This document shows, piece after piece, positions 2,041-40,143 of a stretch of DNA of 64,000 nucleotides; position 1 is the first letter of the stretch, and each line of letters opens with the position of its first letter. The notes below the pieces were generated by a model, which was not told the origin of the DNA, did no database searches, and saw nothing but the letters and a program-made list of their open reading frames with translations. Origin of the DNA: a virus (taxonomy: Duplodnaviria; Heunggongvirae; Uroviricota; Caudoviricetes); the IMG/VR virus record IMGVR_UViG_3300032304_000977, positions 1 to 64,000 of that record; one strand, written 5' to 3'. Position numbers and translations under genes: made by a program.

Positions 2041-2742
2041 TTAGGCTACTCCATGCCTTTCGTAGCGACGATGCCATTTGTAAACTTCAGAAAGTAGTTT
2101 GTGCAAACAATCATTGTTTCTGAAATCGTAATCAAATGTTTTGAGGATTGATGTTAGAGTTGGAGAGTTAGAACGAATTTTGCAAGAACTTAATAGTTCT
2201 TCTATTGATTTATTAGGATATTTACAACGATAGTCTAGATAGATACAATGAGCATATGCTTGGATTTCGTCAAAGTGACTGTAGTAGTTTCGATCCTCTT
2301 CAATTTTATGACGATTGCTACTTTTGTATTGGTAATAATAGGAAGTTCCCTCATCATATCTACGATCGTACTGCATAAAATGCACAAATTCGTGCATAAG
2401 TGTTTGTATAAACTTATATTTAAATCTGTCCCAAGAACGCTCGGTGAACTCAAACACATCATATGTGTTGGTGTAGATAATGACTGTGCTTCGTCTAGTC
2501 TCAGAGTCGTATTCCCCACCGACTGCGACATATTCTTGATAAAATTTTGATTTAGATGTATTGCGGACAAACTTAATGCAAGTTTTCCATTTTTTGCAAA
2601 AATTAATTAACCCGATTGGATCATTTTTGAAGCGATCTAGATCATTCCATGCTTTTGATGGAATGAACTTTGCTCTGAAAGGACGCTCAGAGAAAGGTAA
2701 AAAGTCTATGAAATCTATCGAGAGGTTTTTTATGAATTCCAT
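2041..2742 (-). CDS. HExxH motif protein, putative zinc metallopeptidase-like
   Basis: 233 aa with LMHEFVHFMQY (HExxH). Directly downstream of an early promoter at 2777-2805. Confidence 0.4.
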   Translation of the reverse strand: MEFIKNLSIDFIDFLPFSERPFRAKFIPSKAWNDLDRFKNDPIGLINFCKKWKTCIKFVRNTSKSKFYQEYVAVGGEYDSETRRSTVIIYTNTYDVFEFTERSWDRFKYKFIQTLMHEFVHFMQYDRRYDEGTSYYYQYKSSNRHKIEEDRNYYSHFDEIQAYAHCIYLDYRCKYPNKSIEELLSSCKIRSNSPTLTSILKTFDYDFRNNDCLHKLLSEVYKWHRRYERHGVA

Positions 2743-2776
2743 GACATCCCCATAAAGTTAAGATTATTTATCCTTT

Positions 2777-2805
2777 ATTATACCTTATGGGTTGTTCGAT
2801 GTCAA
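2777..2805 (-). promoter_or_regulatory. sigma70-type early promoter TTGACA-N17-TATAAT
   Basis: On minus strand: cTTGACAtcgaacaacccataaggTATAAT. Upstream of the HExxH gene. Confidence 0.6.
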
Positions 2806-2810
2806 GCAAT

Positions 2811-4160
2811 TTATCCGAAAAATTCGTCCAAACTCTGAATTTCTTGTTTTTCGAAGTGTTCTTCGAACATATTCCTCGAAGTTTTCGCCAAATTTGGGTC
2901 GAAATTCGTTTTTGTAAGAACTTCGTTTAGATAGCCTGTTGGCTTTTGTTCGGCAAGATCAAGATAGTGCTGAGCAATTCGTTTCCGATCAAACTGTTGA
3001 ATTAGACCATAATTATTATCGACGATACGCATATATTCAGCTTCAGACATGTCGCAGTATTCAGTAATCTTATGCGCATACTCTTTTGGAGTAGAACCCT
3101 TTTTAATCATACAGTAGTTGACACCAGCCTTCAGAACTACACCATTGCCATCTTCATTATTTGAAACACCATAATTAATAGCAATTGGTACTGTTCCGAT
3201 TCGCATAGCATCTACCACAACACGATTGAAGTGTTCGCCAAATGTATTACTCCAACTTGGATCAACCAAAAATTTAGAGGAAGATAGGATTTCGTCACGT
3301 TTAGCGCCAGAGATAAAACCGAGATATTCAAAGTTGCCAGAATCCTCAGCATTTTCCCAGATACGTTTTCCGATCATCTTGTCTGTTGCATCTGGATCAT
3401 ATTGTTTTGTGCAAAAATATTCTTCTTTACACTTATCTTTTGACATCATATATGCTGCTTCAATACCATATCCCCCAACCAAAGTTTTGACCATGGGCAT
3501 GTGAGGAACAGCACGAATAAGGTCGTCCACACGCTTCCAGCGTTTAAAGGTTTGTATAGACAGGATTTTGTTCTCGCGACCAGCAAATTTTGGGGTAGGT
3601 GGAACGCCAGCGATATCCTGTGGGTTCAAAATTAACGCTCGAGGTGTGGACATAAAATCAGCTGATTCGTATGCAGCAGGATGCACGCACGCAAGACCAG
3701 CAAAATGTTTTTCGAATAAACTAATCCAAGGATATAGTTTTTTCAAATTAGCATCATGAATGATTACGATTTGTTTGGCTTTCACATTCTCAATCATTGG
3801 TAGCCATTCTTTGTATTGCTCGGTATCTTTGTTCTTAAATCCAAAGATAGATTGCCAAATTACAACATCATGTTTGTTGGCATCTTGAACGAACTGCTCA
3901 ATAGAATCTTTTACTTTATATGAATAATATGGAGCAAGCCAACCATCTCCCTGATGCACAGGAAATCCAGAACCAATACCAATCTCCCATCCCTCTTTCA
4001 ATACAGAAGGAATTTCAACAGGTTTTACCTGTTTGTTTGGCTTAAGATAAGCGAACGTCACTTCATGACCAAGTTCTTTCAACCCTGCCATTAAATGTTC
4101 ACAGTGATTGATAATACCTCCAAAATTGTTGAAGGTGTGCATCGCCATCATAATTTTCAT
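2811..4160 (-). CDS. GT-B fold glycosyltransferase (GT4-like; N-terminus resembles T4 alpha-glucosyltransferase)
   Basis: 449 aa. N-terminus MKIMMAMHTFNNFGG...GHEVTF resembles the GT-B/GT4 start (T4 a-gt MRICIFMARGLEGCG...GHEVTL). C-terminal EX7E-like block TFGEHFNRVVVDAMRIGTVPIAI. Confidence 0.6.
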   Translation of the reverse strand: MKIMMAMHTFNNFGGIINHCEHLMAGLKELGHEVTFAYLKPNKQVKPVEIPSVLKEGWEIGIGSGFPVHQGDGWLAPYYSYKVKDSIEQFVQDANKHDVVIWQSIFGFKNKDTEQYKEWLPMIENVKAKQIVIIHDANLKKLYPWISLFEKHFAGLACVHPAAYESADFMSTPRALILNPQDIAGVPPTPKFAGRENKILSIQTFKRWKRVDDLIRAVPHMPMVKTLVGGYGIEAAYMMSKDKCKEEYFCTKQYDPDATDKMIGKRIWENAEDSGNFEYLGFISGAKRDEILSSSKFLVDPSWSNTFGEHFNRVVVDAMRIGTVPIAINYGVSNNEDGNGVVLKAGVNYCMIKKGSTPKEYAHKITEYCDMSEAEYMRIVDNNYGLIQQFDRKRIAQHYLDLAEQKPTGYLNEVLTKTNFDPNLAKTSRNMFEEHFEKQEIQSLDEFFG

Positions 4161-4321
4161 TTAATATCCTTTGTGTTATTGTCTAACCATTGTTTTGCTT
4201 CTTCTTCTGAATCAAAATATGGTCCAAAAGTTTTGTGGTTTTCATCAACCCAAAAAAACGTATAGGATGGTAAACCAGCATCTCTATATTTCACCAGTTT
4301 TAGTTTAAGTCCAAAGTCCAT
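4161..4321 (-). CDS. small hypothetical protein (53 aa, not in supplied ORF track)
   Basis: ATG at 4319-4321 and TAA at 4161-4163 on the minus strand, filling the gap between two genes. Protein MDFGLKLKLVKYRDAGLPSYTFFWVDENHK... Ends 1 nt before the glycosyltransferase start. Confidence 0.25.
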
Positions 4322-5153
4322 GACGCACCTTGATCAAACGAATCATCATTTCTTCATCTTCGTCTTCGTATTGTTTTTCGAGTTTAGAACACTCATCAAG
4401 CATTTTACTTACACGCTCACGTTGTTCAGGTGTTTTCTCATCACGGAACAATCCCAGTGACTCTCCATCTTCATCTTTCTCATTACGTTTCTCATCGCAA
4501 TAAGCAGACCAACCTGATGCTTCATGAGGATCAACACGCTTAGGACGTTCAACTGTCCACCATGTATATAGATCTAGTATTTCTTGCGCTTGAATCGCTT
4601 GTTGAGTTGGCTTGCCGAATTTTTCGTCTTCGGGGGTTAGACCATAACCTTCATCAGAAATCAACTTACGTTGCCATTCTAAGTTGGCAAGACCACACTC
4701 TGGATTGCGCCATGTTCTCCAACGGAACCAACCCCAAGCCCACCATGGTGCAACAAATTTCTTGCGAGCATCTTGGTCCCATGCTACGTGCCACCATGCC
4801 AATTCTATTTCAACAAAATCTACAAGTTCATTGAAAAGACATGGAAGAAATCTATTTCCAACATCTTGCCATTGTCCTGGCTTAATATCACGAGGGTGAG
4901 CAGTAAGCTGATGAGTGCGAGTAACGAATCGGTTGTTAATATAATACTTGACAGAATAGATTTTGTCAGGCACGAACATGATGGCGTTTTGGATTATGTC
5001 AAGACCTTCTTCTGCTAACCAGTAGCGGAAAGGGTAAGACTTCTTTGCCAGTTTATTCCAAGCTGCCCATCCTTCACTTGTTTCTGCATGTGGCTTTGCT
5101 GTACCACGCAGCCAGTCAGCGAATTTCGAACAAGTCCAATAATTACTTCTCAT
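4305..5153 (-). CDS. hypothetical Trp-rich protein
   Basis: 282 aa, unusually W-rich (WWAWGWFRWRTWRN), acidic C-terminus. Sits in the operon between the 2OG oxygenase and glycosyltransferase genes. Confidence 0.45.
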   Translation of the reverse strand: MRSNYWTCSKFADWLRGTAKPHAETSEGWAAWNKLAKKSYPFRYWLAEEGLDIIQNAIMFVPDKIYSVKYYINNRFVTRTHQLTAHPRDIKPGQWQDVGNRFLPCLFNELVDFVEIELAWWHVAWDQDARKKFVAPWWAWGWFRWRTWRNPECGLANLEWQRKLISDEGYGLTPEDEKFGKPTQQAIQAQEILDLYTWWTVERPKRVDPHEASGWSAYCDEKRNEKDEDGESLGLFRDEKTPEQRERVSKMLDECSKLEKQYEDEDEEMMIRLIKVRHGLWT

Positions 5154-5176
5154 AGTTACTCCAAGTTTTATACCTA

Positions 5177-5205
5177 ATTATACCCGATTATAGTTTAAAT
5201 GTCAA
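5177..5205 (-). promoter_or_regulatory. sigma70-type early promoter TTGACA-N17-TATAAT
   Basis: Minus strand: cTTGACAtttaaactataatcgggTATAAT. The -35 overlaps the stop of the 2OG oxygenase gene. Drives the W-rich and glycosyltransferase genes. Confidence 0.6.
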
Positions 5206-6518
5206 GCAAAAAAATCAGCCAAATCTGCTTTCATTGCATTCGGGTGGTACTTCGAAAGAACTTCTTCGCCAAGTTTTTCTCGAAGATATTCATACCACTC
5301 TTGCTCTTCCCACATTCCTGGCGAAACACCATTCCACAATTTTTTCCAAAGAGGATGTTCTTTATTCAATCTACGCGATTCAACAAATTCATATCTAGCG
5401 TTTTCATATTCAAACGAACCAAGTTCAAGCATGTTTTCACGGAAGTACACAACCAATGAAATTCGTTCAGTTTGATCGTCATTTAATACGATGGGAGTGT
5501 TTCCATGGATAATTTCATGGTTGTTAACAAGTAGTAGGTCTCCTGGACGGACATTAACAGCCATACGAATTTCTGGGAACACCAAGTAACCACCTGTGAA
5601 ATTGCCAGTGTTAGACAAAACCAATAAATTAGACAAACCAGAATCCAAGTCACCAGCATCACGATGTGCTGCGGTGCGGAATGTTTTGTTAACTGTGATT
5701 GTTGTGAATGGTGTTTCTGGAACAAGGTATCGTTTGTCAAGGTTTTTCGCAGCCTCCATTTGATTATTATAACGCCAAGGTAGTAACTCTTTAAAACCAC
5801 GTGCCAAAGATTGTAAGAATGGATATGCCATTGCAAACTTCTCTGGATTGTCGCGAGTATATGTAGTCGCACGACCATAAGGGATTCGAGGATAACGATC
5901 ATACCAACCTGCGATACCAGAATCAACTGGATTGCCATAAGATGTTTCGCTGATCATCTTCATTGTTTCTTTTGTTGATTCTGCTCTCTGCGCAGGTGTT
6001 AATGGAATAATACTATCAACCCATTCGTCAAAATTAAACTTGTTTCTGAAACGTGATATAACCCAGACATTATTCTTACCAGAACCCAATGCCTTTAAAC
6101 GTGCTTCTAGTGTTGGATAGCGTGATCTAACATCTTCAATAATATCTTCATCACCGAGTTTTGCTTTTTCTGCATTTAGCAAAGCAAGCATCATTTCTTC
6201 CTGATAATTAGTAACCCACTCACGACCCTCACCAGTTACCGATGTTCCTTCTTTAATTCCAGAAGCAAGACCACGATTTTCGGTGCGAACAGCTGCTTCA
6301 CGCAAACCAACATATGCTAAATCCTGCTCTTCTTTCGAAAAAAAGTTTTTTCTAAATTTAAATGCAATGTGTCGTTCATCAGGATCTACACCATATCCAG
6401 ATGGGAGAAAACAGTCTGTGTCTTCTTCAATAAGGATATCGTAGTGGTTCTCATCAACAAACATACCGAGCAAATGCTCACAATTTTGTTTTTGATCTAG
6501 TTTAATAATCTGTGTCAT
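5202..6518 (-). CDS. 2OG-Fe(II) dioxygenase domain protein (C-terminal HxD...H...RxS)
   Basis: 438 aa. C-terminal AAHRDAGD ... HEIIHGNTPI ... RISLVVYF is the canonical 2-oxoglutarate/Fe(II) oxygenase triad plus the 2OG-binding RxS. The N-terminal ~250 aa are unassigned. Confidence 0.6.
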   Translation of the reverse strand: MTQIIKLDQKQNCEHLLGMFVDENHYDILIEEDTDCFLPSGYGVDPDERHIAFKFRKNFFSKEEQDLAYVGLREAAVRTENRGLASGIKEGTSVTGEGREWVTNYQEEMMLALLNAEKAKLGDEDIIEDVRSRYPTLEARLKALGSGKNNVWVISRFRNKFNFDEWVDSIIPLTPAQRAESTKETMKMISETSYGNPVDSGIAGWYDRYPRIPYGRATTYTRDNPEKFAMAYPFLQSLARGFKELLPWRYNNQMEAAKNLDKRYLVPETPFTTITVNKTFRTAAHRDAGDLDSGLSNLLVLSNTGNFTGGYLVFPEIRMAVNVRPGDLLLVNNHEIIHGNTPIVLNDDQTERISLVVYFRENMLELGSFEYENARYEFVESRRLNKEHPLWKKLWNGVSPGMWEEQEWYEYLREKLGEEVLSKYHPNAMKADLADFFA

Positions 6519-7897
6519 TCGAATATCTCCGATTTAATTCTTCTTCCAAATTTTGTCGCATCAAACAAAGGTGTGTCATCATCAACTTTACCTTGTCCCT
6601 CAATATGTAGTTGTGCGCTCATTTCAACATTATAAAGTCTCATATGTTTTCTATCAATACCAACCACAAATCTCTTATAAAAGTTTGGATCAGAATAACG
6701 ATTCTTCAATTGTTTTACCATAATCTGATTCATTTGATCGAGTTCTTCAGTAGCAATCAACGCAACCATCAAGTCGGCTGTCGCTGGCAAACCAAAAGAT
6801 TCAGAAGTATCTTCAAGTCCAGGATCGGTGTTAGCAAATCCAGAACGAGTCGTTTGTGTAGCGCTTACAACAGGAACTTTATATTCTCCAGCCAATCCCC
6901 TCAATTCTTCTGCGATAGACTTAATGTATGTATAAGAATTGACATTCGCTCCCATACGTAGTCTTTGGGAAGAGCAGATATTAAGGTAATCGATAAAAAT
7001 CACATCAGGGATAAACTCCCTCTTCATCTTCAACTCTTCAATCAATGCACGGAAATGACCAGCATGAGCAGAAGCAGTAGGATATTCTTTTACGATCAGT
7101 TTACCTTTTGTCTTATTACTAATCTTCTCAATCCTAGAATCAAAGATTCTTCTTTCCATTAACTTCAAACCATCCATAGTGATTTCTAAGAGGTTTGCGT
7201 CAATACGTTCAGCAATCTTTTCTTCAGCCATCTCCATAGTTATGTATAACACATTTTTACCCTGAAGCATAAAACTTGCAGCGAAATGACACATAGCCAA
7301 AGATTTACCAACACCAGTTCCAGCCAAAATAATGTTTAGAGTTTTCCTACTAAGACCACCATTTGTTATTTTGTTAAGAAGGTCGATATCGAAAGGAATT
7401 TTCTCTTCAACTCTGTGATAAAAATCATAGCGATCAGAAGCATTCTCAATATAGTCATGCCCAATATTACTATCAAACGTGACAGCCAAAGCATCGCTAA
7501 GTAAAGATACAATCGCATCTTGGTTGTGATTTTTGTCTTTTCCTTCAATAATTTTGATTGATTGGATGATTGCATTATAAACAGCTCTGTCTTTACAAAA
7601 TTTCTCTGTAGTATCAGTTATCCAATCTTCATTTGTTTTCTCTTCGCTAAGAGAATCCAAAGTCTCGTAAGATCCCTTTACCTCATGTTCAGTTACGTCT
7701 GTCCTATTGCTAATTTCAAGTTTTAATACATCAACAGTAGGAACAGTATTATACTTGTTGAAGAAATTGTTATATTCTTCAAAAATAATCTTATCAGTTC
7801 TATCCGTAAAGTATTCAGGAAATAAGAAAGGAAACACCTTTCTTGCATATTCTTCATTACATAACAGATTTGAAAAAATTTGATTCTCAATCCTCAT
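6515..7897 (-). CDS. 41: DnaB-family replicative DNA helicase (T4 gp41 homolog)
   Basis: 460 aa. Walker [14 protein letters not shown], DnaB-like C-terminal RecA fold. Synteny next to uvsX as in T4-like phages. Confidence 0.85.
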
Positions 7898-8945
7898 TCA
7901 AAACTTCCTCCTCTTCAACAGCAGATTCTACAACATCACTACCATAATTATACTTCTTCTTACAATATGTGTCAAGTTGTGATAAGATATCTTCTGTGAA
8001 AAACTCGGAAGGATTGTTTGCAATATTTTTGCCGAAAACTTTACGACCATCGTGAACTTCAATTCGTCCACCTTGCGCTTTCCAGATTCCTGCTTCAACA
8101 GCAAGGTCGGTAAGACCATGATAACGATCAAGTCCCTTAGTGAAAGACAACTTTGTTTCAACCATAGACTTCTCACGTGTGAATCTTGATTTCTCAAGTT
8201 TACATTTAATGATGTTACCAACAACCTCAGTTCCATCCTTATCCTGTGACTTAGATAGGAACACAATTGTTGAGGCAGCATATTTCAAACCATCACCACC
8301 ACCCATCGTTTTGGTTGGCATGTATGCGCCAACAACTGCATATGTGTGATTCGTAACAACCATCGCTACATCTAGTTTCGCCAACTTCAAAGATAAGACC
8401 CTAAACGCACCTCGAATCAACTGCGCACGGGTCATGTCTCGAGTATCTTTCCCCTCAAGCGTATCTTCCATTTCTTTTGAAGTTGATAGCATACCCAATG
8501 AATCGAGGAAAAACATCAATGGTGGTCTATCTTTCTTGGATGTCTTTTCATAAGCATCTAGAATCTTGGTCGCTTGAGTGCGAAACTCTTGAACAGTTGA
8601 AACAGGAACAATCATAAAACGCTTGGTGTCGATACCACGTTCAACAAGCATTTCTTTGTTTAATGCTCCCTCTGTTTCGAAGTAAATGACTCCAGCTTGT
8701 TCATTAGTGCGTAGAAAGTTGTTCGCAATACCCAAAGCATAGAATGTTTTTCCAGTGGAAGACTCACCAGCCAGAGCTGTAACTTTGTTCCCAGGAAGAC
8801 CACCATAAATGCTACCACTGAGAAGAGCATTAAGGGTATAAGAACCAGTATCGATAAACTTAGTTGTATCACCAACAACGCCATCATCAGCCAATCCCGC
8901 ATACTCATTGTCTAACTCCTTAACTATATTCTTCAAAAAACTCAT
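7887..8945 (-). CDS. uvsX: UvsX RecA-like recombinase
   Basis: 352 aa. RecA core with P-loop GESSTGKTF. Located between gp43 and gp41 as in T4-like genomes. Confidence 0.85.
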
Positions 8946-9217: not shown

Positions 9218-11728
9218 TTATCCGAAAAATTCATCAAGAGAATTCTTTTCTTCTAGAGTCCAACCGATTGCTTCTAGAATTGATTCTAATGGATGAACGA
9301 AAACCTTTTCAAATTGTTTTTCATAATCTACGTATTTATGTAAACCAAATTCCTTTGGTAATTCATTTGTAAAACTAATCACATCTTCGTGTATGATATT
9401 TGGCTCTTTCAAGTAGATAAATTTAATTCGGTCGCCCTCTCGGATCAAGGGATAATTGTTTGCCAAATTATGTTCTTTGAGAACGTGATTATACATCAAC
9501 GCACCACGAACATGTATCGGTGTAGATTTACGATAAATTGTTCCATTGTCAGAATATTCTTTGAGGTTATTTACACTTCTTGGAAATGCAGCGTCTTCTA
9601 CTGGCAACTCAAAGAATTCCTTTTTATAATCCAACACAAATTTACGTAAAGCAATAGAATCACCAGAAATAATTAAACTCATCGCCTCTTTTAGTTTACC
9701 ACGAACAACATGCGGTGTAGAAGATTTGATCATTTCAAGACCCATAATCTTCATCTTTGGTACTGAGTATTGAACACCCTCAGAGTTGTGTACATTCAAC
9801 ACGTATCGTTTCTTTGCAACAAAGATACCCTTATCCGCAATAGATTCACGCTTCATGATCATCTTTTGATCATAAGCATTTTGCCTTTGCGCCAACTCAA
9901 CATAGCATTCATCTATGTAGGATTGCATTTTATCTTCACAAAACGTATCAATAGTTTTAACAACTTTCTCTTTATCTTTTTGTTGATCTTTTGTGAAGAT
10001 TTTATCAACCAGTGGACCCATGTTAAGATAAACTGAATCGGTGTCGACAGCAATAACATAATCTTTGCTTTCGGTCTTTAACACTTTATTCATGTAGTCA
10101 TTTAATTTGTTGTGAATCCAACGAATTGATAACTGACCACTCAACGTAATACCCTCAGCCATTCTTCTATCATAGTAACGGAAATACTGATTAGCCAAAG
10201 CACCATAAGCAGAATTAAGAGCAATCTTCAAAGCCATCTGCAAATTATTCAGACGTGATATTTCATTTTTAAGATGCTTCTGGCTTTTATCATTTTCATA
10301 CTGTTGTTGAATGACAAGCATTTGTTTCTTTGCTTTGCTTCTATCAGCATACATCTTTTCCATCAACTCAGGTAAGAATCCTCTTATATCTTTTCGATAG
10401 CACCAGCCATTAGCACTACACGCAAGATTTAAATCTTTGAATCCACCTGTCTCTTCATGCTCTAAGAAATAACCAACACCACCAACATGTGTATAGTTGC
10501 TTACTAATGTTTCTGGTGAGATGTTATATTGCATAATCAAGTGAGGATACAAACTGTTGAGGTCGAATGAAACTACCCAATCGTGCATCCCAACAATTGG
10601 GTCTTTAACGTACGCACCCTCAATAACAGAATCTTTATCGTTGCTTGTTTTGTTTGGAATGACAATTTTCTTTGCTCTTAAATGGTTGTAGATAATTGTA
10701 TCCCACATACGCACCTGAGAGAAAACATCCTCATAGTTGACTTTAGCATTATATGCCATAACAATCGCCAACTCGATTAACTTCATTTTCTCTTCTAACT
10801 TAAATACCAGAACAGTATCATGAATGTTATATTCAACAAACTTCTTCCACCCATTTGTGTAGAATTCTTTAAACGAATCATATTCAGAGTGGTCTAGTTT
10901 GTTTTCGCCAAGTTCAACATAAGCAATGTGATCCAATCTGTATGATTCTTGCATTGAATATGTGAATTTTTTATACAGATCGATGTAATCTAAAATCGAA
11001 ACTCCTGCGATTTCATACATAATCTGCTCATTACCTTTAACGTGAATTCGTCTCTCGGTAATGTCGCCCCATGGAGATAATGTGTTAGCGTGTGATTCGC
11101 CAAGCACATTTGTTATCCGTCTGATTAGATATGGTATATCAAAGAAATTGATGTTCCAACCAGAAACGATATCTGGGCAGTTTTCTTTCCAAAATTTTAA
11201 AAAAGTCAACAACAGTTCTGTTTCATTTTGCACACAATGATAGTTTACATCTTTATTGGCAGTATACGGACTACGACCAAAGGTATGGATCTCATTGGTT
11301 TTAGAATCCATCAAAGTAATAAGAAGAATTTCCTCATCGGCTGTCTCAACATCAGGGAATCCACTATTAGTTGTGGTCTCGATATCAACGAAGAAACATT
11401 TAATCAAATCTTTATCAAATTTGATTTCTGATGGATAATTATCAGATATGTATTGAAACGCATATTGTGAGTTGCCGTAAACATCAAACCCATCAACACC
11501 TTTATATCTTTCTACAAATTCACGTGTGTCCTTCATGCTTCCTGGTTGAATCTCATAAAGAACCTGCCCATCCAATGTGCGAAAAATCTCACCAGAAGAA
11601 TTCTTCTTCTTAGATGAGACGTAAAGAGTTGGACGAAAATCTATTTTATCTTTAGTTGCTATTCCATTGCTATAACCACGAACACATAGTTTGTTTCCTG
11701 ATCGAAACACATTTGTGTAAAATTCCAT
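9218..11728 (-). CDS. 43: family B DNA polymerase (T4 gp43 homolog)
   Basis: 836 aa. Exo I FVDIETT, polymerase motifs DxxSLYPS-like (SFDLNSLYPHLI) and IAVDTDSVY. Size and position typical of gp43. Confidence 0.9.
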   Translation of the reverse strand: MEFYTNVFRSGNKLCVRGYSNGIATKDKIDFRPTLYVSSKKKNSSGEIFRTLDGQVLYEIQPGSMKDTREFVERYKGVDGFDVYGNSQYAFQYISDNYPSEIKFDKDLIKCFFVDIETTTNSGFPDVETADEEILLITLMDSKTNEIHTFGRSPYTANKDVNYHCVQNETELLLTFLKFWKENCPDIVSGWNINFFDIPYLIRRITNVLGESHANTLSPWGDITERRIHVKGNEQIMYEIAGVSILDYIDLYKKFTYSMQESYRLDHIAYVELGENKLDHSEYDSFKEFYTNGWKKFVEYNIHDTVLVFKLEEKMKLIELAIVMAYNAKVNYEDVFSQVRMWDTIIYNHLRAKKIVIPNKTSNDKDSVIEGAYVKDPIVGMHDWVVSFDLNSLYPHLIMQYNISPETLVSNYTHVGGVGYFLEHEETGGFKDLNLACSANGWCYRKDIRGFLPELMEKMYADRSKAKKQMLVIQQQYENDKSQKHLKNEISRLNNLQMALKIALNSAYGALANQYFRYYDRRMAEGITLSGQLSIRWIHNKLNDYMNKVLKTESKDYVIAVDTDSVYLNMGPLVDKIFTKDQQKDKEKVVKTIDTFCEDKMQSYIDECYVELAQRQNAYDQKMIMKRESIADKGIFVAKKRYVLNVHNSEGVQYSVPKMKIMGLEMIKSSTPHVVRGKLKEAMSLIISGDSIALRKFVLDYKKEFFELPVEDAAFPRSVNNLKEYSDNGTIYRKSTPIHVRGALMYNHVLKEHNLANNYPLIREGDRIKFIYLKEPNIIHEDVISFTNELPKEFGLHKYVDYEKQFEKVFVHPLESILEAIGWTLEEKNSLDEFFG

Positions 11729-13540: not shown

Positions 13541-13569
13541 ATTATACTATAAACGTGAATTTATGTCAA
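13541..13569 (-). promoter_or_regulatory. sigma70-type early promoter TTGACA-N17-TATAAT
   Basis: Minus strand: aTTGACAtaaattcacgtttatagTATAAT. Confidence 0.6.
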
Positions 13570-15558: not shown

Positions 15559-15984
15559 TTATTTAACATTACTTTTTTTACCAATATTATATTTAGGAAC
15601 AAGTTCCCACTGGTCTTTATCTTTATACGAGATAACTTTAATTTGCGACAATGATGCTTGTTGCTCTGCTTTGGCTGGAAATTTGATCTTTAGCAATCCC
15701 CAATCTTCAAGCAAAACAGCGACTGTATTTCTACGCTCAATGTCATTGTTTGTTATGTTTGCTTCTTTGCCATCTAAAGCAAACAACTCTTTAAAGTGGA
15801 CGATAAAGTATCGTCCCTGTTTATGTAAAATGTGACAGGACTGAAAGAGTTTATTGTCTTTTCTCGATGCGATACCAATCCTTGTCAATGTTTCTTTAAT
15901 TTTTAGAAAATTGTCAGGTTCTGGGAGTGTCACCTCGAGCATACTCTCTGAAGTCCAATCATAAAACACTGTTTCAACTGTCAT
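15559..15984 (-). CDS. regA: RegA translational repressor
   Basis: 141 aa. Strong similarity by eye to T4 RegA (KETLTRIGIA...SCHILHKQGRYFIVHFKEL...LLEDWGLL...WELVPKYNIG). Conserved position downstream of gp62. Confidence 0.85.
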   Translation of the reverse strand: MTVETVFYDWTSESMLEVTLPEPDNFLKIKETLTRIGIASRKDNKLFQSCHILHKQGRYFIVHFKELFALDGKEANITNNDIERRNTVAVLLEDWGLLKIKFPAKAEQQASLSQIKVISYKDKDQWELVPKYNIGKKSNVK

Positions 15985-16368: not shown

Positions 16369-17310
16369 TCACTTGAATTTACAATTAGCCATAATCTCGA
16401 TCAATGCTGCAACATTGTTGACCTCAATATCCGCAACGAATGCAGCCTTGTGTTGATAATCAGCCAAAGTAAGAATGAGTTGTGGGATGGAAGATTGCTC
16501 TAGATAGTCTGTGGCTGTGTCGTAAAGTCTTCGGAAAAGAACAGTAGTTTCAATGTCGTTATTTTTTGCAATCCATGCTCTGGCTTTCATGAAGTCTTTC
16601 TTCTTTAGGAATTCGATAAGTTCCTTCATCGATTCATCAGAAAGATTTGCAATAATTTGCGCATCGATACTACCACCTTTACTATAACGCTGAAGTTCGT
16701 TTAGAACTCTGCGGAAGTCAGGAAAGAAAGTCTCAACAACTTTTGCTACAACCTTTTGGTCGAATTCGATATTCTCAATTGAGAGAATGTCAACAACTCT
16801 ACGATAGAATGCTGCAGCAATTTTTGGTTTATCTTTACTTTCAATTCTAAATTCAACCACCGCACATCGTGAATGAAGTGGCTCAATTATTCTGTTTTTG
16901 AAGTTACAGGTAAGGATGAATCTGCAATTTGCTGAAAATTCTTCAATAAAAGCACGCAGGGCTGCTTGCGCATCTGGGGTGAGATAATCGGCTTCGTCGA
17001 GGATGACGACTTTCGGACCATCTTGGGTGATGCTAACAGACGAGGCAAAGGTTTTGATTTTTGTTCGTAATACATCTATTCCTCTTTCTTCTGAACCATT
17101 AATAAACATAAATTCAGCATTGACTTCATTACACAATGCTCTTGCTACTGTTGTTTTACCAACACCAGCGCTACCAGAAAAAATAAAATTTGGTAGTTGA
17201 CCCTCAGCAATATAATGCTTAAAGTTTTGTTTCAACTCTTCAGCAAGAATACAATCATCAATGGTTTTTGGGCGATACTTCTCGCACCATAAGAATTCTT
17301 CACGACTCAT
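16369..17310 (-). CDS. 44: clamp-loader AAA+ ATPase (gp44 homolog)
   Basis: 313 aa. Walker A SGSAGVGKTT, Walker B ILDEAD, RFC-box architecture. Position between gp45 and gp62. Confidence 0.85.
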   Translation of the reverse strand: MSREEFLWCEKYRPKTIDDCILAEELKQNFKHYIAEGQLPNFIFSGSAGVGKTTVARALCNEVNAEFMFINGSEERGIDVLRTKIKTFASSVSITQDGPKVVILDEADYLTPDAQAALRAFIEEFSANCRFILTCNFKNRIIEPLHSRCAVVEFRIESKDKPKIAAAFYRRVVDILSIENIEFDQKVVAKVVETFFPDFRRVLNELQRYSKGGSIDAQIIANLSDESMKELIEFLKKKDFMKARAWIAKNNDIETTVLFRRLYDTATDYLEQSSIPQLILTLADYQHKAAFVADIEVNNVAALIEIMANCKFK

Positions 17311-17330: not shown

Positions 17331-17996
17331 TTATTCAGCTGTTGAACCTGCCTCAACAGCAACATAGTAACAAAGTTCTGCGCTTGTGTTTTTGAAACGA
17401 CAAATCTTCATCTTAGCAATGGTAACATCGTATGCTCCTGGAAGCATTTTTAGGTTTTCTACTTTCAAATAAGCTGTAAACTTCTTGTCCGATTTACCTA
17501 GATCGATTTCGAACTTATTGCTCATTACATTTTTCACATCAACCACACGTGCAACAACTGTATTACCGTCGCCAACAACTGTGAGATCATTCACCTTTAA
17601 AATGCCAGCCGAGCGAATGATATGATCTAAATCTGATGCTGCTAATTTGAAAGTGATATTGCTTTCATCTTCTGGAAAAACAATAGATTTAGATGGCGCT
17701 TTTAGAATGTTTGCTTCTGCTGCTTTGTATTTAATAACATTCTTACCTTCCTTAACTTCAACAATGTCACCATTGAATGCGAAGTCGGGACTCTCGAACA
17801 ACGAAACAACACCCAAAAATTCATTGACGTCATAAATGCCAAAGTCTTGTGGGAATGTCTCAGAAACAGTTACTTCAGCGAAGACATTGTTTCCCTCATT
17901 TCGAGTTGACAATTTGTTTCCCTGTTTGATCAACAAATTCATGTTGATTGAAGCAAAGTTCTTAACGAGTGTTTGCGTTTCTTTTGATAATTTCAT
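17331..17996 (-). CDS. 45: sliding clamp (gp45 homolog)
   Basis: 221 aa. N-terminus MKLSKETQTLVKNFASIN matches the T4 gp45 start MKLSKDTTALLKNFATIN. Preceded by a consensus early promoter. Confidence 0.85.
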   Translation of the reverse strand: MKLSKETQTLVKNFASINMNLLIKQGNKLSTRNEGNNVFAEVTVSETFPQDFGIYDVNEFLGVVSLFESPDFAFNGDIVEVKEGKNVIKYKAAEANILKAPSKSIVFPEDESNITFKLAASDLDHIIRSAGILKVNDLTVVGDGNTVVARVVDVKNVMSNKFEIDLGKSDKKFTAYLKVENLKMLPGAYDVTIAKMKICRFKNTSAELCYYVAVEAGSTAE

Positions 17997-18025: not shown

Positions 18026-18054
18026 ATTATACCCCAAATGTGTGTTTGTGTCAA
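18026..18054 (-). promoter_or_regulatory. sigma70-type early promoter TTGACA-N17-TATAAT
   Basis: Minus strand: tTTGACAcaaacacacatttggggTATAAT. Upstream of gp45. Confidence 0.6.
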
Positions 18055-20187: not shown

Positions 20188-20216
20188 ATTATACTACGAT
20201 TTAACATTAATGTCAA
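20188..20216 (-). promoter_or_regulatory. sigma70-type early promoter TTGACA-N17-TATAAT
   Basis: Minus strand: tTTGACAttaatgttaaatcgtagTATAAT. Confidence 0.6.
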
Positions 20217-27278: not shown

Positions 27279-27782
27279 TTAAAGCTCCTCATTAGGAAAG
27301 GCATCTGTTGGTTCAAACACATATTCTCTCTTCGGTGTATAAGGGAAAACAATTGGCACAAAGGACGCAGATCCAGTGTAGTATGATTTGAAAGGTTTAC
27401 CATCCTCATCACTCATATACCAGTTCCAAAAAATTTTACCTTCTAGGTCATAGGGCTGACCATTGAATCGATCAGATTGTTTGAACACATGGCTGCAACG
27501 ATTGTTTTGAAACACACCATCACTCACTTCATTCCACTCAGAGTCTTCTCCTGTGAGTGGAATGATTGGTTCAAAGGAAGCCAACTTCTTGAACAAGTCG
27601 ATAGTATAAGGTGCAGTCGAACCCGAGTGACCCTTTTTCGAAAACATATTAATCAATTTTAGAACATGCTGACAAATCGCACCCTGCATCTCATCGCAGT
27701 ATGTACCATCCTCATTCAACCAACCAGCTACTTTAAATTCTCTCAATGCGTGTTTTTTTAAATTGCTCATGCTGTAATCCAA
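27279..27782 (-). CDS. hypothetical protein
   Basis: 167-aa ORF. Confidence 0.4.
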   Translation of the reverse strand: MDYSMSNLKKHALREFKVAGWLNEDGTYCDEMQGAICQHVLKLINMFSKKGHSGSTAPYTIDLFKKLASFEPIIPLTGEDSEWNEVSDGVFQNNRCSHVFKQSDRFNGQPYDLEGKIFWNWYMSDEDGKPFKSYYTGSASFVPIVFPYTPKREYVFEPTDAFPNEEL

Positions 27783-34961: not shown

Positions 34962-35015
34962 TTCCTTTTCAATCATCATAAGATAATTATACGTCCAAAC
35001 CGAATTAATGTCAAG
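34962..35015. repeat. 54-bp exact direct repeat, copy B
   Basis: Identical to 22484-22537. Contains the RBS, -10, spacer and -35 of the promoter. Confidence 0.8.
34986..35014 (-). promoter_or_regulatory. sigma70-type early promoter TTGACA-N17-TATAAT
   Basis: Minus strand: cTTGACAttaattcggtttggacgTATAAT. Identical to the copy at 22508-22536 (part of the 54-bp repeat). Confidence 0.6.
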
Positions 35016-35414: not shown

Positions 35415-35438
35415 TTAAGTTAGTGGTCACTAACTTAA
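35415..35438. repeat. 24-bp perfect palindrome TTAAGTTAGTG-G-TCACTAACTTAA
   Basis: Perfect 11-bp arms around a central G. Overlaps the stop of ORF 35435..36055. Degenerate copies at about 30783-30807 and 31005-31024. Confidence 0.65.
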
Positions 35439-36055
35439 AGATTTAATTCAGTTAGAGATACATTCTTTCCGATATTACCTTTTACGAATATATTGAACGC
35501 AAGACTGACACGTGGTGTCTCATGTTCTTTTTTATCTACGTAATGTATAACACTAGATGGAAATAAAATTATTTTACCTGGATTAACTTTAAACCATGAC
35601 ATCTCTGCATTAAACATGTTGCTGTCTTCAGGATTATCTGGTTGAATCTTTATCTGCTCATAAGCTGTTTTCTCAAAACAAATCCTGTCATCTTCGCCAT
35701 GAATATACAACACACCAGAAATATAACTGTTGGAGTGTGTATGTTTATGATGAAATTGATCTTTCATTGTCCAATTTAACCAACTCTGAGTAATGTATGG
35801 TTGTGCGTTTTTATTCTTAATTAGTTTAGTAAACCAATAATTAACAACCTCCATTAAATCAGTTCTTAAATTCAGTAACTCTGGTTCATCAAGAACATAA
35901 TTGTTATGTGAGGTTGCATTACCTTCATTCTTAATGGTTTTCTTCCCCATCTCATTGAAGAAATCTATTTCCTCATCTGTAAATTCCCTACCCAAAGCAC
36001 TATGCAATGTTGGTATTGGAAATATAGGTTCAACTGTTGGTTGTATGATTGGCAT
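35435..36055 (-). CDS. 2OG-Fe(II) oxygenase-like / cupin protein
   Basis: 206 aa with HHKHTHSNSYISGVLYIHGEDD, resembling the phage-type 2OG-Fe(II) oxygenase signature (H.H..S..SGV.Y). Low certainty. Confidence 0.4.
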   Translation of the reverse strand: MPIIQPTVEPIFPIPTLHSALGREFTDEEIDFFNEMGKKTIKNEGNATSHNNYVLDEPELLNLRTDLMEVVNYWFTKLIKNKNAQPYITQSWLNWTMKDQFHHKHTHSNSYISGVLYIHGEDDRICFEKTAYEQIKIQPDNPEDSNMFNAEMSWFKVNPGKIILFPSSVIHYVDKKEHETPRVSLAFNIFVKGNIGKNVSLTELNL

Positions 36056-36183: not shown

Positions 36184-36477
36184 TCATCTGTCATATGATT
36201 CCAAAACTTTTAGCAACTTAACATCTTCATTCGGAGCAAGATAAACTGTTGCGCTGATTCTGCGTTCAAATGTTATTGGGTCTAGTGGTCTTGACACAAT
36301 ATCCACCAATCTACGATCAATTATATTATCAACAATTGCCGTAACAAGTTCTTGACGATATTTGCGCTTATCATCTTCAGTCAAATCCACAAAATTCTCT
36401 TTAGGAATTGTTATATACGCTTCTACCTTTTTTCCACCAATGGCATAGGATTTATAATCAAGTTTAATATTGTTCAT
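36184..36477 (-). CDS. hypothetical protein
   Basis: 97-aa ORF, 4-nt overlap with gp46. Confidence 0.4.
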   Translation of the reverse strand: MNNIKLDYKSYAIGGKKVEAYITIPKENFVDLTEDDKRKYRQELVTAIVDNIIDRRLVDIVSRPLDPITFERRISATVYLAPNEDVKLLKVLESYDR

Positions 36478-39871: not shown

Positions 39872-40143
39872 GAAAGGTCTAAGTCTGCTGCTGGGTATCC
39901 AACTGGCAGTGGATTTGTCTCTGCATAATATTTCGTTTCAAGAACACGATCTCCTAATTTTCTAGAAAACTCAAATGCTGCCTCAGAAGTCTTAAACCAT
40001 TTAAACATCACAGCATCATAAGAGTTTGTATGATCTGCGTAATACACTACTTTATACATTACCTTCCTCCATAAAATCATCAAGAGAAGATGTTTTGTTC
40101 TTCTTCTTTTTTGGTTTCTTTGGTACATTATACTCGCTATCAT
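39868..40143 (-). CDS. small hypothetical protein
   Basis: 91-aa ORF overlapping the gp55 3' end. Could be spurious. Confidence 0.25.
   Translation of the reverse strand: MIASIMYQRNQKRRRTKHLLLMILWRKVMYKVVYYADHTNSYDAVMFKWFKTSEAAFEFSRKLGDRVLETKYYAETNPLPVGYPAADLDLS

Follow-up and report, generated by a model that had tools for sequence, protein, structure and literature searches.

A TET/JBP dioxygenase and a glycosyltransferase with putative clamp-binding tails suggest replication-coupled DNA hypermodification in a T4-like phage

Two neighbouring genes of a T4-like phage encode a TET/JBP-family Fe(II)/2-oxoglutarate dioxygenase (5mYOX; hereafter TET) and a GT-B glycosyltransferase (GT) that probably form a module for post-replicative DNA hypermodification, in which a base would be hydroxylated and then glycosylated by clamp-tethered enzymes. 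Enzyme families and folds, intact catalytic residues, gene adjacency, an exchangeable gene cassette, and the presence, exclusivity and conservation of a short C-terminal tail were computed for the window, i.e. the whole 64,000-nt stretch of DNA analysed, and its relatives; from these we infer that DNA is the substrate of both enzymes. The features concerned are the following.

2041-2742, minus strand: HExxH protein (233 aa), putative zinc metallohydrolase
2777-2805, minus strand: early promoter, perfect TTGACA-N17-TATAAT, driving the HExxH gene and genes downstream
2811-4160, minus strand: GT (449 aa), a GT-B, GT4-like, retaining-type glycosyltransferase; predicted DNA glycosyltransferase
2814-2834, minus strand: GT tail S-L-D-E-F-F-G, identical to the gp43 tail in 7/7 residues; putative gp45-binding motif
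4157-4321, minus strand: 54-aa ORF, its ends overlapping the Trp-rich gene and the GT gene
4305-5153, minus strand: Trp-rich protein (282 aa)
5177-5205, minus strand: early promoter, perfect TTGACA-N17-TATAAT, driving the Trp-rich gene, the 54-aa ORF and GT
5202-6518, minus strand: TET (438 aa), predicted DNA thymine hydroxylase
5205-5225, minus strand: TET tail D-L-A-D-F-F-A (family consensus S-L-E-E-F-F-G/A); putative gp45-binding motif
6515-7897, minus strand: gp41 replicative helicase (Pfam DnaB_C)
7947-7975, minus strand: early promoter, perfect consensus, upstream of gp41; likely promoter of the gp41-TET unit
9218-11728, minus strand: gp43 DNA polymerase
9221-9241, minus strand: codons of the C-terminal gp43 tail S-L-D-E-F-F-G, the reference clamp-binding motif
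17331-17996, minus strand: gp45 sliding clamp (Pfam gp45-slide_C and DNA_PPF)
40052-40609, minus strand: gp55 late sigma factor homolog, assigned through its DLP6 homolog, which lies under the gene annotated there as late sigma factor

All four genes that an earlier note had grouped into a candidate modification cluster, namely those of the dioxygenase, the GT, the Trp-rich protein and the HExxH protein, were confirmed at their positions on the minus strand. Perfect TTGACA-N17-TATAAT sites occur 15 times in the window, always on the minus strand, compared to 0.04 expected. The two sites from which the earlier note had the GT and dioxygenase genes transcribed are indeed perfect early promoters, but their assignment to genes had to be revised: the 5177-5205 promoter, whose -35 hexamer contains the TET stop codon, serves the Trp-rich gene and GT and not the dioxygenase, and the one at 2777-2805 belongs to the HExxH gene. 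The dioxygenase gene is instead coupled to gp41, and since the gp41 stop and the TET start overlap, this unit is likely driven from 7947-7975. As previously stated, the window contains no dCMP hydroxymethylase gene (gene 42), with both tblastn and Pfam being negative.

The dioxygenase matched Pfam Tet_JBP (PF12851) over residues 216-361 with 90.7 bits (cut-off 34.9) and an E value of 7.6e-26. Its HxD...H...RxS core is intact (H285-R-D287, H338 and R352-x-S354), the catalytic residues are invariant across 99 homologs, and in an alignment with TET2 its HRD, H and RxS segments find counterparts, among them the TET2 sequence R-I-S-L-V. When the structure model, which is of moderate confidence (pLDDT 65) and from which the substrate-contacting loops are not readable, was submitted to Foldseek, the best 25 matches were all CcTet, NgTet1, TET2 and CMD1, and prolyl hydroxylases appeared at E > 1e-2 only. 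The enzyme is thus a TET/JBP family member by profile and fold, as had been suspected, and the prolyl-hydroxylase-like function considered as an alternative is not borne out. A more general role as protein hydroxylase is likewise disfavoured, as the enzyme groups with DNA dioxygenases in the fold search. The protein comprises an N-terminal region (residues ~1-200), the catalytic core (~216-361) and a C-terminal extension; no J-binding domain was detected. The N-terminal 200 aa found matches in only 106 representative clusters, nearly always at the N-terminus of proteins of ~430-480 aa.

The GT matched Pfam Glycos_transf_1 (PF00534; 40.1 bits, cut-off 26.4, E 3.6e-10), and its AF2 model (pLDDT 88, pTM 0.88) adopts a GT-B fold, which substantiates the earlier classification. 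The EX7E-like block reported previously reads E309-X7-D317, both residues being invariant, and the likeness to T4 alpha-GT noted at the N-terminus comes down to a short local match of marginal significance (hhalign E 0.003, probability 11%). The protein falls outside the alpha-GT and beta-GT Pfam families, and its profile similarity to the two T4 enzymes is marginal or none. Its best Foldseek neighbours were HepE, PimA, MshA and BshA, with glycogen synthase also among them, and T4 alpha-GT was matched at E 2e-8 (TM 0.57/0.67). A retaining-type fold such as this one makes an alpha linkage probable. By itself the fold gives no pointer to DNA, since the substrates of the closest structural neighbours are lipids, small molecules and glycans. 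The earlier note had proposed grouping with cell-wall GT4 enzymes as evidence against DNA modification; such structural grouping was found, yet it does not discriminate, because validated phage GT-B DNA glycosyltransferases group with GT4 enzymes too, being reported as similar to BshA, MshA and PglH (bioRxiv 10.1101/2023.12.21.572611).

The phage is uncultivated. In more than 100 T4-like relatives, likewise uncultivated, TET always lies behind gp41 with an exchangeable cassette after it, and the order gp41-TET-(Trp-rich)-GT-HExxH was found in dozens of IMG/VR contigs. Three cassette types follow TET: the GT, as in the window; a set of AADT (PF18724), P-loop kinase3 (PF18751), GATase, GNAT, amidoligase and sometimes ParB; or a pair of proteins of 335 and 150 aa of unknown function. 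The AADT-type set, which also fills this slot in Caulobacter phage Cr30, is absent from the window, where the GT stands in its place, and the window contains no ParB. On the TET tree the cassette types intermingle, one AADT-type TET being 81% identical to a GT-type TET, and the TET active-site segments do not differ between types, which also holds for Cr30 (AADT, E 1.3e-52) and for HTVC112P, whose TET homolog adjoins ParB and is 46% identical over the core. Furthermore, the TET-GT pair stays adjacent when relocated, either between a CbbQ-like ATPase and gp45 or beside RNase H, so that the adjacency is kept in at least three genomic contexts of T4-like phages.

The remaining members of the proposed cluster could not be linked specifically to the pathway. 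The Trp-rich protein, with 20 W among its 282 residues (7.1%, compared to 1.1% in the window proteome), had no Pfam, PHROG or NCBIfam match; at the TET locus its gene is confined to the closest GT-type relatives, and its family, which numbers over 5,600 proteins, is also found in other large phages, where neither a TET nor a GT gene lies within 6 kb. It shares the transcription unit of GT and is not demonstrably part of the pathway. The 54-aa ORF, annotated as a gene in public assemblies, is 47-62% identical in a subset of relatives. The HExxH protein is a putative zinc metallohydrolase, and conservation across 58 orthologs covers H117, E118 and H121 as well as E159 and H165; its sole Pfam match, DUF3920, was below cut-off. 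Its gene always lies downstream of the TET-plus-cassette unit, flanks every cassette type and delimits the exchangeable cassette on its downstream side in the lineage of the window, but was not found beside the relocated TET-GT pairs.

TET and GT end in a tail resembling that of the DNA polymerase of the same phage. T4 gp43 ends in SLDFLFG and T4 gp55 carries S-L-D-F-L-Y-E-A-N-D; both tails bind gp45 and are interchangeable (PMC2988020). The gp55 homolog of the window, with the near-C-terminal motif S-S-L-D-D-F-M-E-E-G-N-V (SLDDFM), provided a second internal positive control besides gp43. Only 4 of the 84 window genes carry the tail motif, namely gp43, the gp55 homolog, TET and GT. Across loci it was present in the gp43 (35/35), TET (62/66 distinct tails), GT (27/29) and GNATa (12/13) orthologs, the window TET tail (L-A-D-F-F-A) being the least canonical one, and it was absent from the tails of gp41, UvsX, DUF6267, kinase, GATase, HExxH (0/49) and Trp-rich proteins. 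In an unbiased scan of 2,801 ORFs 207 were tailed, all but one (206/207) being TET, gp43, GT, GNATa or AADT. The tail is preceded by a variable linker. The GT and gp43 tails differ by synonymous codons (TCT/AGT, CTT/TTG, GAT/GAC), indicating selection at the protein level. Within genomes, the similarity of the gp43 tail to the TET and GT tails is confounded by phylogeny. The TETs of T4-like DLP6 and C48C1 have the tail, and those of the non-T4-like phages HTVC112P and P12024L do not. We regard the TET and GT tails as putative gp45-binding elements, and their presence on both enzymes speaks for action on DNA to which they are bound and against a function in the cell wall or on small molecules.

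With respect to the target base, a crude motif search detected no C5-methyltransferase signature in the window or in 161 loci (2.2 Mb). Pfam searches found no such enzyme among window ORFs of at least 140 aa up to 49.7 kb, nor was one present in the 10 kb beyond the window start or within 7-10 kb of TET in any of the 161 loci; in this phage the search covered ~74 kb of a roughly 162-kb genome. The AADT, kinase, GATase, GNAT, amidoligase and occasional ParB genes of the relatives are the set reported for phage T-dioxygenases and thymidine hypermodification (PMC13229309). In published assays some clade C1 enzymes lacking ParB showed no activity. According to published surveys, 5hmU is the product of most 5mYOX enzymes that have no methyltransferase nearby. 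The interleaved cassettes, the identical active-site segments and the lack of a nearby C5-methyltransferase make post-replicative conversion of T to 5hmU and then to glycosyl-5hmU the likeliest chemistry. The earlier note had set the locus against the hydroxymethyl-C of T4; base hydroxylation followed by glycosylation is supported by family and fold, gene pairing and clamp-type tails, but the evidence favours thymine over cytosine.

It could be argued that TET and GT form no DNA pathway at all, with the GT acting on the host envelope, a lipid, a protein or a small molecule as an auxiliary metabolic or host-takeover gene and the dioxygenase acting alone, or on RNA or protein. The structural neighbours PimA, MshA, BshA, HepE and glycogen synthase would fit this, as would the JGI label 'glycosyltransferase involved in cell wall biosynthesis' on GT relatives and the lack of a sequence-level match to T4 alpha-GT, T4 beta-GT or TAGT. 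We consider it very improbable, because the GT shares the polymerase tail and keeps it in nearly all orthologs, adjoins TET in three genomic contexts, swaps in one slot with DNA-acting AADT/kinase cassettes, and belongs to a tiny family (333 matches in 5.8e9 proteins, viral contigs only); validated phage GT-B enzymes that modify DNA resemble the same GT4-like proteins, and TET sides with DNA and not protein-modifying dioxygenases. Alternatively, the pathway may operate as proposed with the tail serving not as a clamp tether but as a signal for a different partner, such as a shared chaperone, a protease (degron), a packaging factor or another replisome protein. The motif comprises only 6-7 residues, and T4 alpha-GT, which has no canonical C-terminal tail, nonetheless co-purifies with gp45 (PMC13216743; Sommer et al. 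2004); its dominance in T4 is explained by promoter strength, not by clamp binding (PMC13216743). This reading is unlikely in our view, as sequence, C-terminal position and variable linker match the gp45-binding tails of T4 gp43 and gp55, the motif marks just two known clamp clients besides TET and GT in the window, TETs from phages without gp45 lack it, and so do the kinase and GATase of the same cassettes.

A cytosine route, in which 5mC would be installed by a C5-methyltransferase of phage or host whose gene lies beyond the region covered, the dioxygenase would oxidise it and the GT would make glycosyl-5hmC, accords with the proven phage TET-GT pathways, which use 5mC (PMC8256090; bioRxiv 10.1101/2023.12.21.572611). 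With less than half of the genome covered, a methyltransferase could lie elsewhere. Moreover, the conserved D290, 3 residues past HxD, aligns with TET2 N1387; in TET2 and in NgTet1 (D234) the residue at this position contacts the cytosine N4 amino group, so a 5mC substrate is compatible with the sequence of the window TET. Still, the route appears quite unlikely given that the methyltransferase adjoins TET in the proven 5mC systems and was found neither in the window nor near TET in the 161 loci, that AADT/kinase cassettes are served by orthologous TETs whose active-site segments are identical, and that the surveys assign 5hmU to most such enzymes.

The system of the window is a variant of known phage 5mYOX-GT systems (PMC8256090; bioRxiv 10.1101/2023.12.21.572611), in which a TET/JBP dioxygenase likewise lies beside a GT, hydroxylation after replication is followed by glycosylation, and 'subclass III' GT-B enzymes resemble BshA, MshA and PglH as the window GT does. 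It differs from the characterised clusters, which have an adjoining C5-methyltransferase and target 5mC, in that no methyltransferase was found, in its location in the core replication block of a T4-like phage, and in the gp43-type tail on both enzymes, which Burke et al. 2021 and Pyle et al. 2023 do not mention. The C1/C2 phage T-dioxygenases, some ParB-dependent and some ParB-independent (O'Toole et al. 2026, PMC13229309), also have no neighbouring C5-methyltransferase and share GATase, P-loop kinase, AADT and ParB partners with the orthologs of the window TET, and a GT association was noted for the ParB-independent ones. At 438 aa the window TET is the larger protein; its N-terminal region of ~200 aa is specific to its family, it has the clamp-type tail, and ParB is absent from the window. 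Thymidine hypermodification by a 5-hmdU DNA kinase and an amino-acid:DNA transferase (Lee et al. 2018 and 2022; PF18724, PF18751) uses the set that occupies the same slot after orthologous TETs in sister phages and Cr30; the AADT and GNAT of sister phages carry the clamp-type tail too.

As in the window phage, the modification genes of T4, which serve 5hmC glucosylation, lie amid gp43, uvsX and gp41 (T4 order 43-42-b-gt-uvsX-41). Its alpha-GT has a GT-B fold similar to that of the window GT and, found on gp45 (PMC13216743), sets a precedent for a clamp-bound DNA glucosyltransferase, although only the window GT has the tail. In T4 the hydroxymethyl base is made before replication at the nucleotide level by gene 42, of which the window has no homolog. 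The kinetoplastid base J pathway (JBP1/2 and JGT) resembles the one proposed here in the PF12851 superfamily and in the order T to 5hmU to O-glycosyl-5hmU, but JGT has a GT-A fold whereas the window GT is GT-B and GT4-like; the two would be analogous, not orthologous. DNMT1 is tethered to PCNA by a PIP-box, which couples maintenance methylation to replication. There too a short motif tethers a DNA-modifying enzyme to the sliding clamp and new DNA is modified behind the fork; as this system is eukaryotic and enzyme and motif are unrelated, the parallel is an analogy only.

Altogether, we propose that TET, made early with the helicase, would use Fe(II) and 2-oxoglutarate to hydroxylate a pyrimidine 5-methyl group in phage DNA, most likely converting thymine to 5-hydroxymethyluracil. 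GT, expressed from the next early promoter, would then transfer a sugar from a host nucleotide-sugar donor onto this hydroxyl, giving a glycosyl-5hmU analogous to base J. As both enzymes end in an acidic-hydrophobic tail of the gp43/gp55 type, they would dock on gp45 and probably be brought to clamps on freshly copied DNA, with modification trailing the replication fork. The new element is the predicted gp43-type clamp-binding tail on TET, GT, AADT and GNAT enzymes, and its sharing by TET, GT and gp43 suggests that modification is coupled to replication in this phage, presumably for the purpose of anti-restriction.

The window derives from a T4-like phage in which the replication and structural genes listed below are all encoded on the minus strand, and the positions that the earlier note had assigned to the dioxygenase (TET), glycosyltransferase (GT), Trp-rich and HExxH genes proved exact for all four.

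2041-2742, minus strand, HExxH protein (233 aa)
2811-4160, minus strand, GT (449 aa)
4305-5153, minus strand, Trp-rich protein (282 aa)
5202-6518, minus strand, dioxygenase (438 aa)
6515-7897, minus strand, gp41 helicase
7887-8945, minus strand, UvsX
9218-11728, minus strand, gp43 DNA polymerase
15559-15984, minus strand, RegA
16369-17310, minus strand, gp44 clamp-loader subunit
17331-17996, minus strand, gp45 clamp
36474-38186, minus strand, gp46
38801-39871, minus strand, gp47
41088-42575, minus strand, UvsW
43739-45100, minus strand, gp23 major capsid protein
48136-49707, minus strand, gp20 portal protein

The capsid genes are closest to those of Methylophilales phage Melnitz, Pelagibacter phage Mosig and cyanomyoviruses (~72% nucleotide identity). 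A nucleotide search of the modification region against 50,697 phage records gave no match, and tblastn of the GT, Trp-rich and HExxH proteins against the same records returned nothing; public metagenomes contain an identical dioxygenase, on contigs reaching 162 kb. In T4, gene 42 (dCMP hydroxymethylase) and beta-gt are situated between gp43 and uvsX-gp41 (L132, T4 genome 20000-45000). The two phages therefore carry modification genes in the same replication-gene neighbourhood but differ in the chemistry. Elsewhere in the early region, the ORF at 27279-27770 encodes an anti-defence protein of the Tad3 family of type I Thoeris inhibitors (PF25185, E 6e-36). Neither an Rfam nor a tRNA scan gave any hit in the window.

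Both promoters proposed for the modification region, at 5177-5205 and 2777-2805, are perfect TTGACA-N17-TATAAT sites. The window contains 15 such sites, against an expectation of 0.04, and all lie on the minus (coding) strand (further examples at 7947-7975, 13541-13569, 18026-18054, 20188-20216 and 34986-35014). They are genuine early-type promoters, and many of the 15 share the extended form TTGACATTAAT...GTATAAT, forming a strongly stereotyped early set. The transcription units differ slightly from those described with the promoters: the promoter at 7947-7975 lies upstream of gp41, whose stop codon is overlapped by the start of the dioxygenase gene, that at 5177-5205 drives the GT gene together with the Trp-rich gene and a 54-aa ORF, and that at 2777-2805 drives the HExxH gene. 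The TGA stop codon of the dioxygenase gene (5202-5205) is embedded in the -35 hexamer (T-TGA-CA) of the promoter at 5177-5205.

The 2-oxoglutarate/Fe(II) dioxygenase core (HxD...H...RxS) recognized at the C-terminus of the 438-aa protein was borne out by a match to Pfam PF12851 (Tet_JBP) of 90.7 bits, far above the cut-off of 34.9 (E 7.6e-26, residues 216-361), and all 120 homologs listed carry a precomputed assignment to this family. The Fe(II) triad and the 2-oxoglutarate-binding arginine are present (H285-R-D287, H338, R352-I-S354), with H285, D287, H338, R352 and S354 invariant in 99 homologs, and the AHRD and R-I-S-L-V segments align with human TET2. An AlphaFold2 model built from 30 homologs was of moderate quality (pLDDT 65, pTM 0.62). 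In a Foldseek search of the PDB with this model, the top 25 matches were Coprinopsis CcTet, Naegleria NgTet1, human TET2 and Chlamydomonas CMD1, at E values of 8.5e-6 to 4e-3 and TM-scores of 0.3-0.5 for a model of pLDDT 65. A prolyl-hydroxylase-like or small-molecule function, which had been offered as the alternative, is rejected on the Pfam and fold matches: the best PDB matches were exclusively TET-family DNA dioxygenases, prolyl hydroxylases appeared only at E > 1e-2, and matches to TauD and clavaminate synthase were weak and confined to the C-terminal strands. We predict that the enzyme hydroxylates a 5-methylpyrimidine in DNA.

The N-terminal 200 aa of the dioxygenase constitute a family-specific extension with three highly conserved loops modelled at low confidence. 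A HMMER search of 1.84 billion representative proteins retrieved 106 clusters, in which the match was nearly always at the N-terminus of proteins of 430-480 aa. The region is found almost only in this TET subfamily, and no evidence emerged for its being a mobile DNA-binding domain. GenBank homologs of the dioxygenase occur in Stenotrophomonas phage DLP6 (49% identity), Caulobacter phage Cr30 (43%), phage C48C1 (44%), Synechococcus phage S-CBWM1 and Pelagibacter phage HTVC112P, where they are labelled 'SNF2 DNA repair protein' or 'hypothetical protein' (the SNF2 label is found in KU682439 for DLP6, KF301602 for Cr30, MG450654 for S-CBWM1 and MN698246 for HTVC112P). The SNF2 label is a misannotation. 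These proteins match PF12851-type dioxygenases and adjoin genes for AADT (amino-acid:DNA transferase), TAGT (TET-associated glycosyltransferase), ParB or nucleotide-sugar enzymes.

Assignment of the GT to the GT4/GT-B enzymes was confirmed by matches to PF00534 (Glycos_transf_1, 40.1 bits, cut-off 26.4) and PF13692 (28.6 bits, cut-off 27), and by a confident AlphaFold2 model (pLDDT 88, pTM 0.88) with the two Rossmann domains of the GT-B fold. Sequence searches of the PDB, with the single sequence or a profile, gave nothing significant, and only the fold search was informative: it returned 267 matches at E <= 1e-3 headed by GT4 enzymes, the nearest being the retaining GT4-type HepE, PimA, MshA, BshA and glycogen synthase. 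Matches at E ~2e-8, with similar TM-scores, were also obtained for T4 alpha-glucosyltransferase, among them its complex with HMU-DNA; this structural likeness is real and no greater than that to other GT-B enzymes. Of the EX7E-like block reported previously, E309-X7 is present in the C-terminal domain (G-E-H-F-N-R-V-V-V-D) and the second Glu is replaced by D317, an Asp variant in which both E309 and D317 are invariant among 29 homologs.

The claimed resemblance of the GT N-terminus to T4 alpha-glucosyltransferase persists as a marginal local match in hhalign, limited to residues 25-106 (E 0.003, probability 11%). It does not extend to family membership, which we reject as the GT had no Pfam match to PF11440 at E <= 1; a tblastn search of the window with T4 a-gt as query also found nothing. 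Membership of the T4 beta-glucosyltransferase family is likewise rejected (hhalign E 0.36), and neither PF09198 nor the TAGT family PF20691 was matched at E <= 1. The GT family is small, with 333 matches in 5.8 billion proteins. Its grouping with GT4 enzymes does not speak against a role on DNA, because experimentally validated phage GT-B DNA glycosyltransferases have like neighbours, reportedly resembling BshA, MshA and PglH (bioRxiv 10.1101/2023.12.21.572611).

Scans of IMG/VR with the dioxygenase, GT and HExxH proteins yielded more than 150 loci. In the lineage of the window the gene order is gp43, uvsX, gp41, TET, an exchangeable cassette, and HExxH, and the cassette is of three types:

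Cassette (a): GT, optionally accompanied by the Trp-rich gene and the 54-aa ORF
Cassette (b): GATase, GNAT, AADT (PF18724) and P-loop kinase3 (PF18751), for example at loci L040 (11317-14676), L053 (11302-14946) and L046 (6987-11977)
Cassette (c): a pair of genes for proteins of 335 aa and 150 aa, as at locus L009 (11321-12328 and 12325-12777)

Some examples of cassette (b) additionally encode a protein resembling amidoligases, a ParB-N protein or a small 2-oxoglutarate oxygenase. Cassette (c) was also found at L139, L143, L147, L148, L151-153 and L160; its two proteins match no Pfam, PHROG or NCBIfam family. The 150-aa protein begins with a DxDGV HAD-like motif, and the 335-aa protein aligns in register, at non-significant scores, with the N-terminal half of T4 beta-glucosyltransferase (BLASTP E 0.35, hhalign E 0.13), so that a beta-glucosyltransferase-like nature is a hunch on our part. 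The types are interleaved on the TET tree, and the cassette was evidently swapped repeatedly. A protein of ~140 aa matching no family (L040 13644-14066; homologs at L026, L028, L037 and L038) is encoded both in AADT-type cassettes and, in some of the GT type, ahead of the GT gene. In most relatives the gene for the DUF6267 protein (68-1279 in the window; PF19782, E 1.7e-87) is conserved downstream of the cassette, at a distance of a few genes. The T-T-K-W-D-G-S-P-S segment of this protein is reminiscent of KxDG motif I in nucleotidyl-transferase ligases. The window encodes a second 2-oxoglutarate/Fe(II) oxygenase (35435-36055; PF13759, E 7.7e-20), and in some relatives a homolog with 33% identity resides inside the TET cassette (for example L059 11362-11958, L142, L144 and L160), which may mean that it contributes to the modification chemistry in those phages.

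In more distant T4-like phages TET and GT are still adjacent, in some cases flanked by a CbbQ-like ATPase and gp45 and in others close to RNase H. Joint relocation of the two genes is good evidence that they are functionally coupled. The TET homologs of cultured phages follow the same logic, with these neighbours:

P12024L: TAGT and a methylase of the N6/N4 type
S-CBWM1: TAGT and nucleotide-sugar genes
C48C1: UDP-galactopyranose mutase
Cr30: AADT
HTVC112P: ParB and FkbM methyltransferase

The window locus itself is devoid of TAGT. In C48C1 (L003, 9323-11355) the mutase gene is the second after TET, in S-CBWM1 (L164, 5207-7921) TAGT, a phosphatase, a glucose-1-phosphate thymidylyltransferase and an APH-like kinase are encoded near TET, and in DLP6 (L001, 6274-7965) a 563-aa nucleotidyl-transferase is encoded immediately upstream of it; these gene contexts point to unusual sugars. 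The 32-kb phage HTVC112P (L162, 3036-5258) carries the trio of ParB-N protein, TET and FkbM-type methyltransferase, which resembles the published architecture of ParB-dependent T-dioxygenases, and its TET shares 46% identity with the window enzyme over the core.

The Trp-rich and HExxH proteins were considered as further components. Tryptophan accounts for 7.1% of the 282 residues of the former, compared to 1.1% in the window proteome, with 9 Trp in the 40-residue stretch 121-160. A part in the pathway is unsupported, as the protein belongs to a widespread family of more than 5,600 members that is also represented in large phages, jumbo phages among them, with neither TET nor GT within 6 kb; among the loci examined, the gene was restricted to the closest relatives of the window. 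Homologs with 63-64% identity (L133 and L135) are found next to dCMP deaminase in a 332-kb jumbo phage and next to DNA ligase in a 188-kb phage. It is probably an unrelated early gene that shares the GT transcription unit. The HExxH protein conserves H117, E118, H121, E159 and H165 in 58 orthologs and is a putative zinc hydrolase; its sole family match, to DUF3920 (18.7 bits), fell below the cut-off of 27.3, and PHROG and NCBIfam gave nothing significant. Its gene, with its own promoter, always forms the downstream edge of the cassette in the window lineage, and relocated TET-GT pairs are devoid of it.

The deduced order of reactions would be conversion of T to 5hmU by TET and of 5hmU to glycosyl-5hmU by the GT. 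We infer thymine as the substrate from context. Where the window has the GT, TET orthologs with 56-81% identity are followed by AADT, kinase, GATase, GNAT and, in some cases, ParB, a gene set (cassette b) that has been tied to thymidine hypermodification and phage T-dioxygenases (PMC13229309). The active-site segments of TET are the same across all cassette types, which are interleaved on the TET protein tree, and an AADT-type and a GT-type TET share 81% identity. A motif screen of the window and 161 loci (2.2 Mb) detected no C5-cytosine methyltransferase signature, and Pfam found no C5-methyltransferase in the scanned window ORFs or in the genes of the adjoining 10 kb, past the start of the window. 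Published surveys conclude that enzymes of the 5mYOX (TET/JBP) superfamily with no neighbouring methyltransferase most probably make 5hmU. A cytosine route is possible if a methyltransferase is encoded in the other ~90 kb of the genome. Altogether, the system is probably thymine-directed, and the proposed sequence of TET/JBP-like hydroxylation followed by glycosylation is supported by family, fold, TET-GT adjacency and a shared C-terminal tail.

The tail is an acidic-hydrophobic motif that terminates T4 gp43 (S-L-D-F-L-F-G) and is found near the end of T4 gp55 (S-L-D-F-L-Y), and in both it constitutes an experimentally defined, interchangeable gp45-binding epitope (PMC2988020). Among the 84 genes of the window only four encode it:

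gp43: S-L-D-E-F-F-G
GT: S-L-D-E-F-F-G, identical to that of gp43
Dioxygenase: D-L-A-D-F-F-A (family consensus S-L-E-E-F-F-G/A)
gp55 homolog: S-L-D-D-F-M

Occurrence of the tail motif in related loci, counted over distinct tails
gp43: 35/35
TET: 62/66
GT: 27/29
GNATa: 12/13
GNATb: 6/8
AADT: 10/22 with this search pattern; the remaining tails mostly have a related ending, G-L-E-x-F-A/L
gp41: 0/51
UvsX: 0/20
HExxH: 0/49
DUF6267: 0/22
Kinase: 0/21
GATase: 0/30
Trp-rich: 0/4

When 2,801 distinct ORFs were scanned without bias, 207 had the strict tail, and 206 of these were TET, gp43, GT, GNATa or AADT. A DNA-level recombination junction as the origin of the shared tails is rejected: the Ser, Leu and Asp codons differ between gp43 and GT, as does the downstream DNA, which implies conservation at the protein level. 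In TET and GT the tail is preceded by a variable linker. The TETs of the non-T4-like phages HTVC112P and P12024L are devoid of it, while those of the T4-like DLP6 and C48C1 carry it. Within genomes the gp43 tail co-varies with the TET or GT tail more than in shuffled pairings (p ~2e-4 and 1e-3), an association confounded by shared ancestry and not counted here as primary evidence. A clamp-bound DNA glucosyltransferase has a precedent, since T4 alpha-glucosyltransferase binds gp45 (Sommer et al. 2004; confirmed in PMC13216743). In a literature search, which was not exhaustive, we came across no description of such tails in 5mYOX, GT or AADT enzymes.

The tails of TET and GT look like a putative tether to the gp45 sliding clamp, and this gives independent support to the predicted action of the GT on DNA. 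On balance we lean slightly towards a model in which post-replicative hypermodification enzymes, namely the TET/JBP hydroxylase, the GT-B glycosyltransferase, AADT and the GNAT acyltransferases, acquired the clamp tail of the polymerase and ride on gp45 as a 'toolbelt'. Hypermodification of thymine would then be co-replicative, and the downstream chemistry (sugar, amino acid or other) would be exchanged as a cassette with the tether retained.

Clusters of TET and GT are already known in phages as a means of DNA hypermodification to escape restriction and CRISPR nucleases. The cluster described here is a variant of these 5mYOX-glycosyltransferase systems placed in a T4-like replication module, one more member of, probably, the thymine-directed branch. 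Its predicted product is a base-J-like glycosyl-5hmU. As here, the phage T-dioxygenases of clades C1/C2 have no neighbouring C5-methyltransferase; they are linked to AADT, P-loop kinase, GATase and ParB or to GTs, the latter being the case in the window (PMC13229309). The pathway is analogous to the base J system (JBP and JGT) and not a member of it, because the window enzyme has a GT-B fold, unlike the GT-A fold of JGT, and because the N-terminal region of the dioxygenase matches nothing beyond its own family, whereas the base J hydroxylase has a J-binding domain.

What the present analysis adds concerns mechanism, as the hydroxylase, the GT and the amino-acid-transfer enzymes of sister phages all bear a polymerase-type tail. 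Published work on phage T-dioxygenases called the rationale of post- versus pre-replicative modification unclear and obtained only partial modification in heterologous hosts. A clamp tether, if true, would account for the ability of post-replicative enzymes to protect a genome that replicates fast, and would parallel, in phages, the coupling of DNA methylation to PCNA; co-expression of the cognate clamp and clamp loader could raise enzyme activity in biotechnological uses. The cassette between TET and HExxH, with its third type, represents a natural experiment in modular DNA chemistry.
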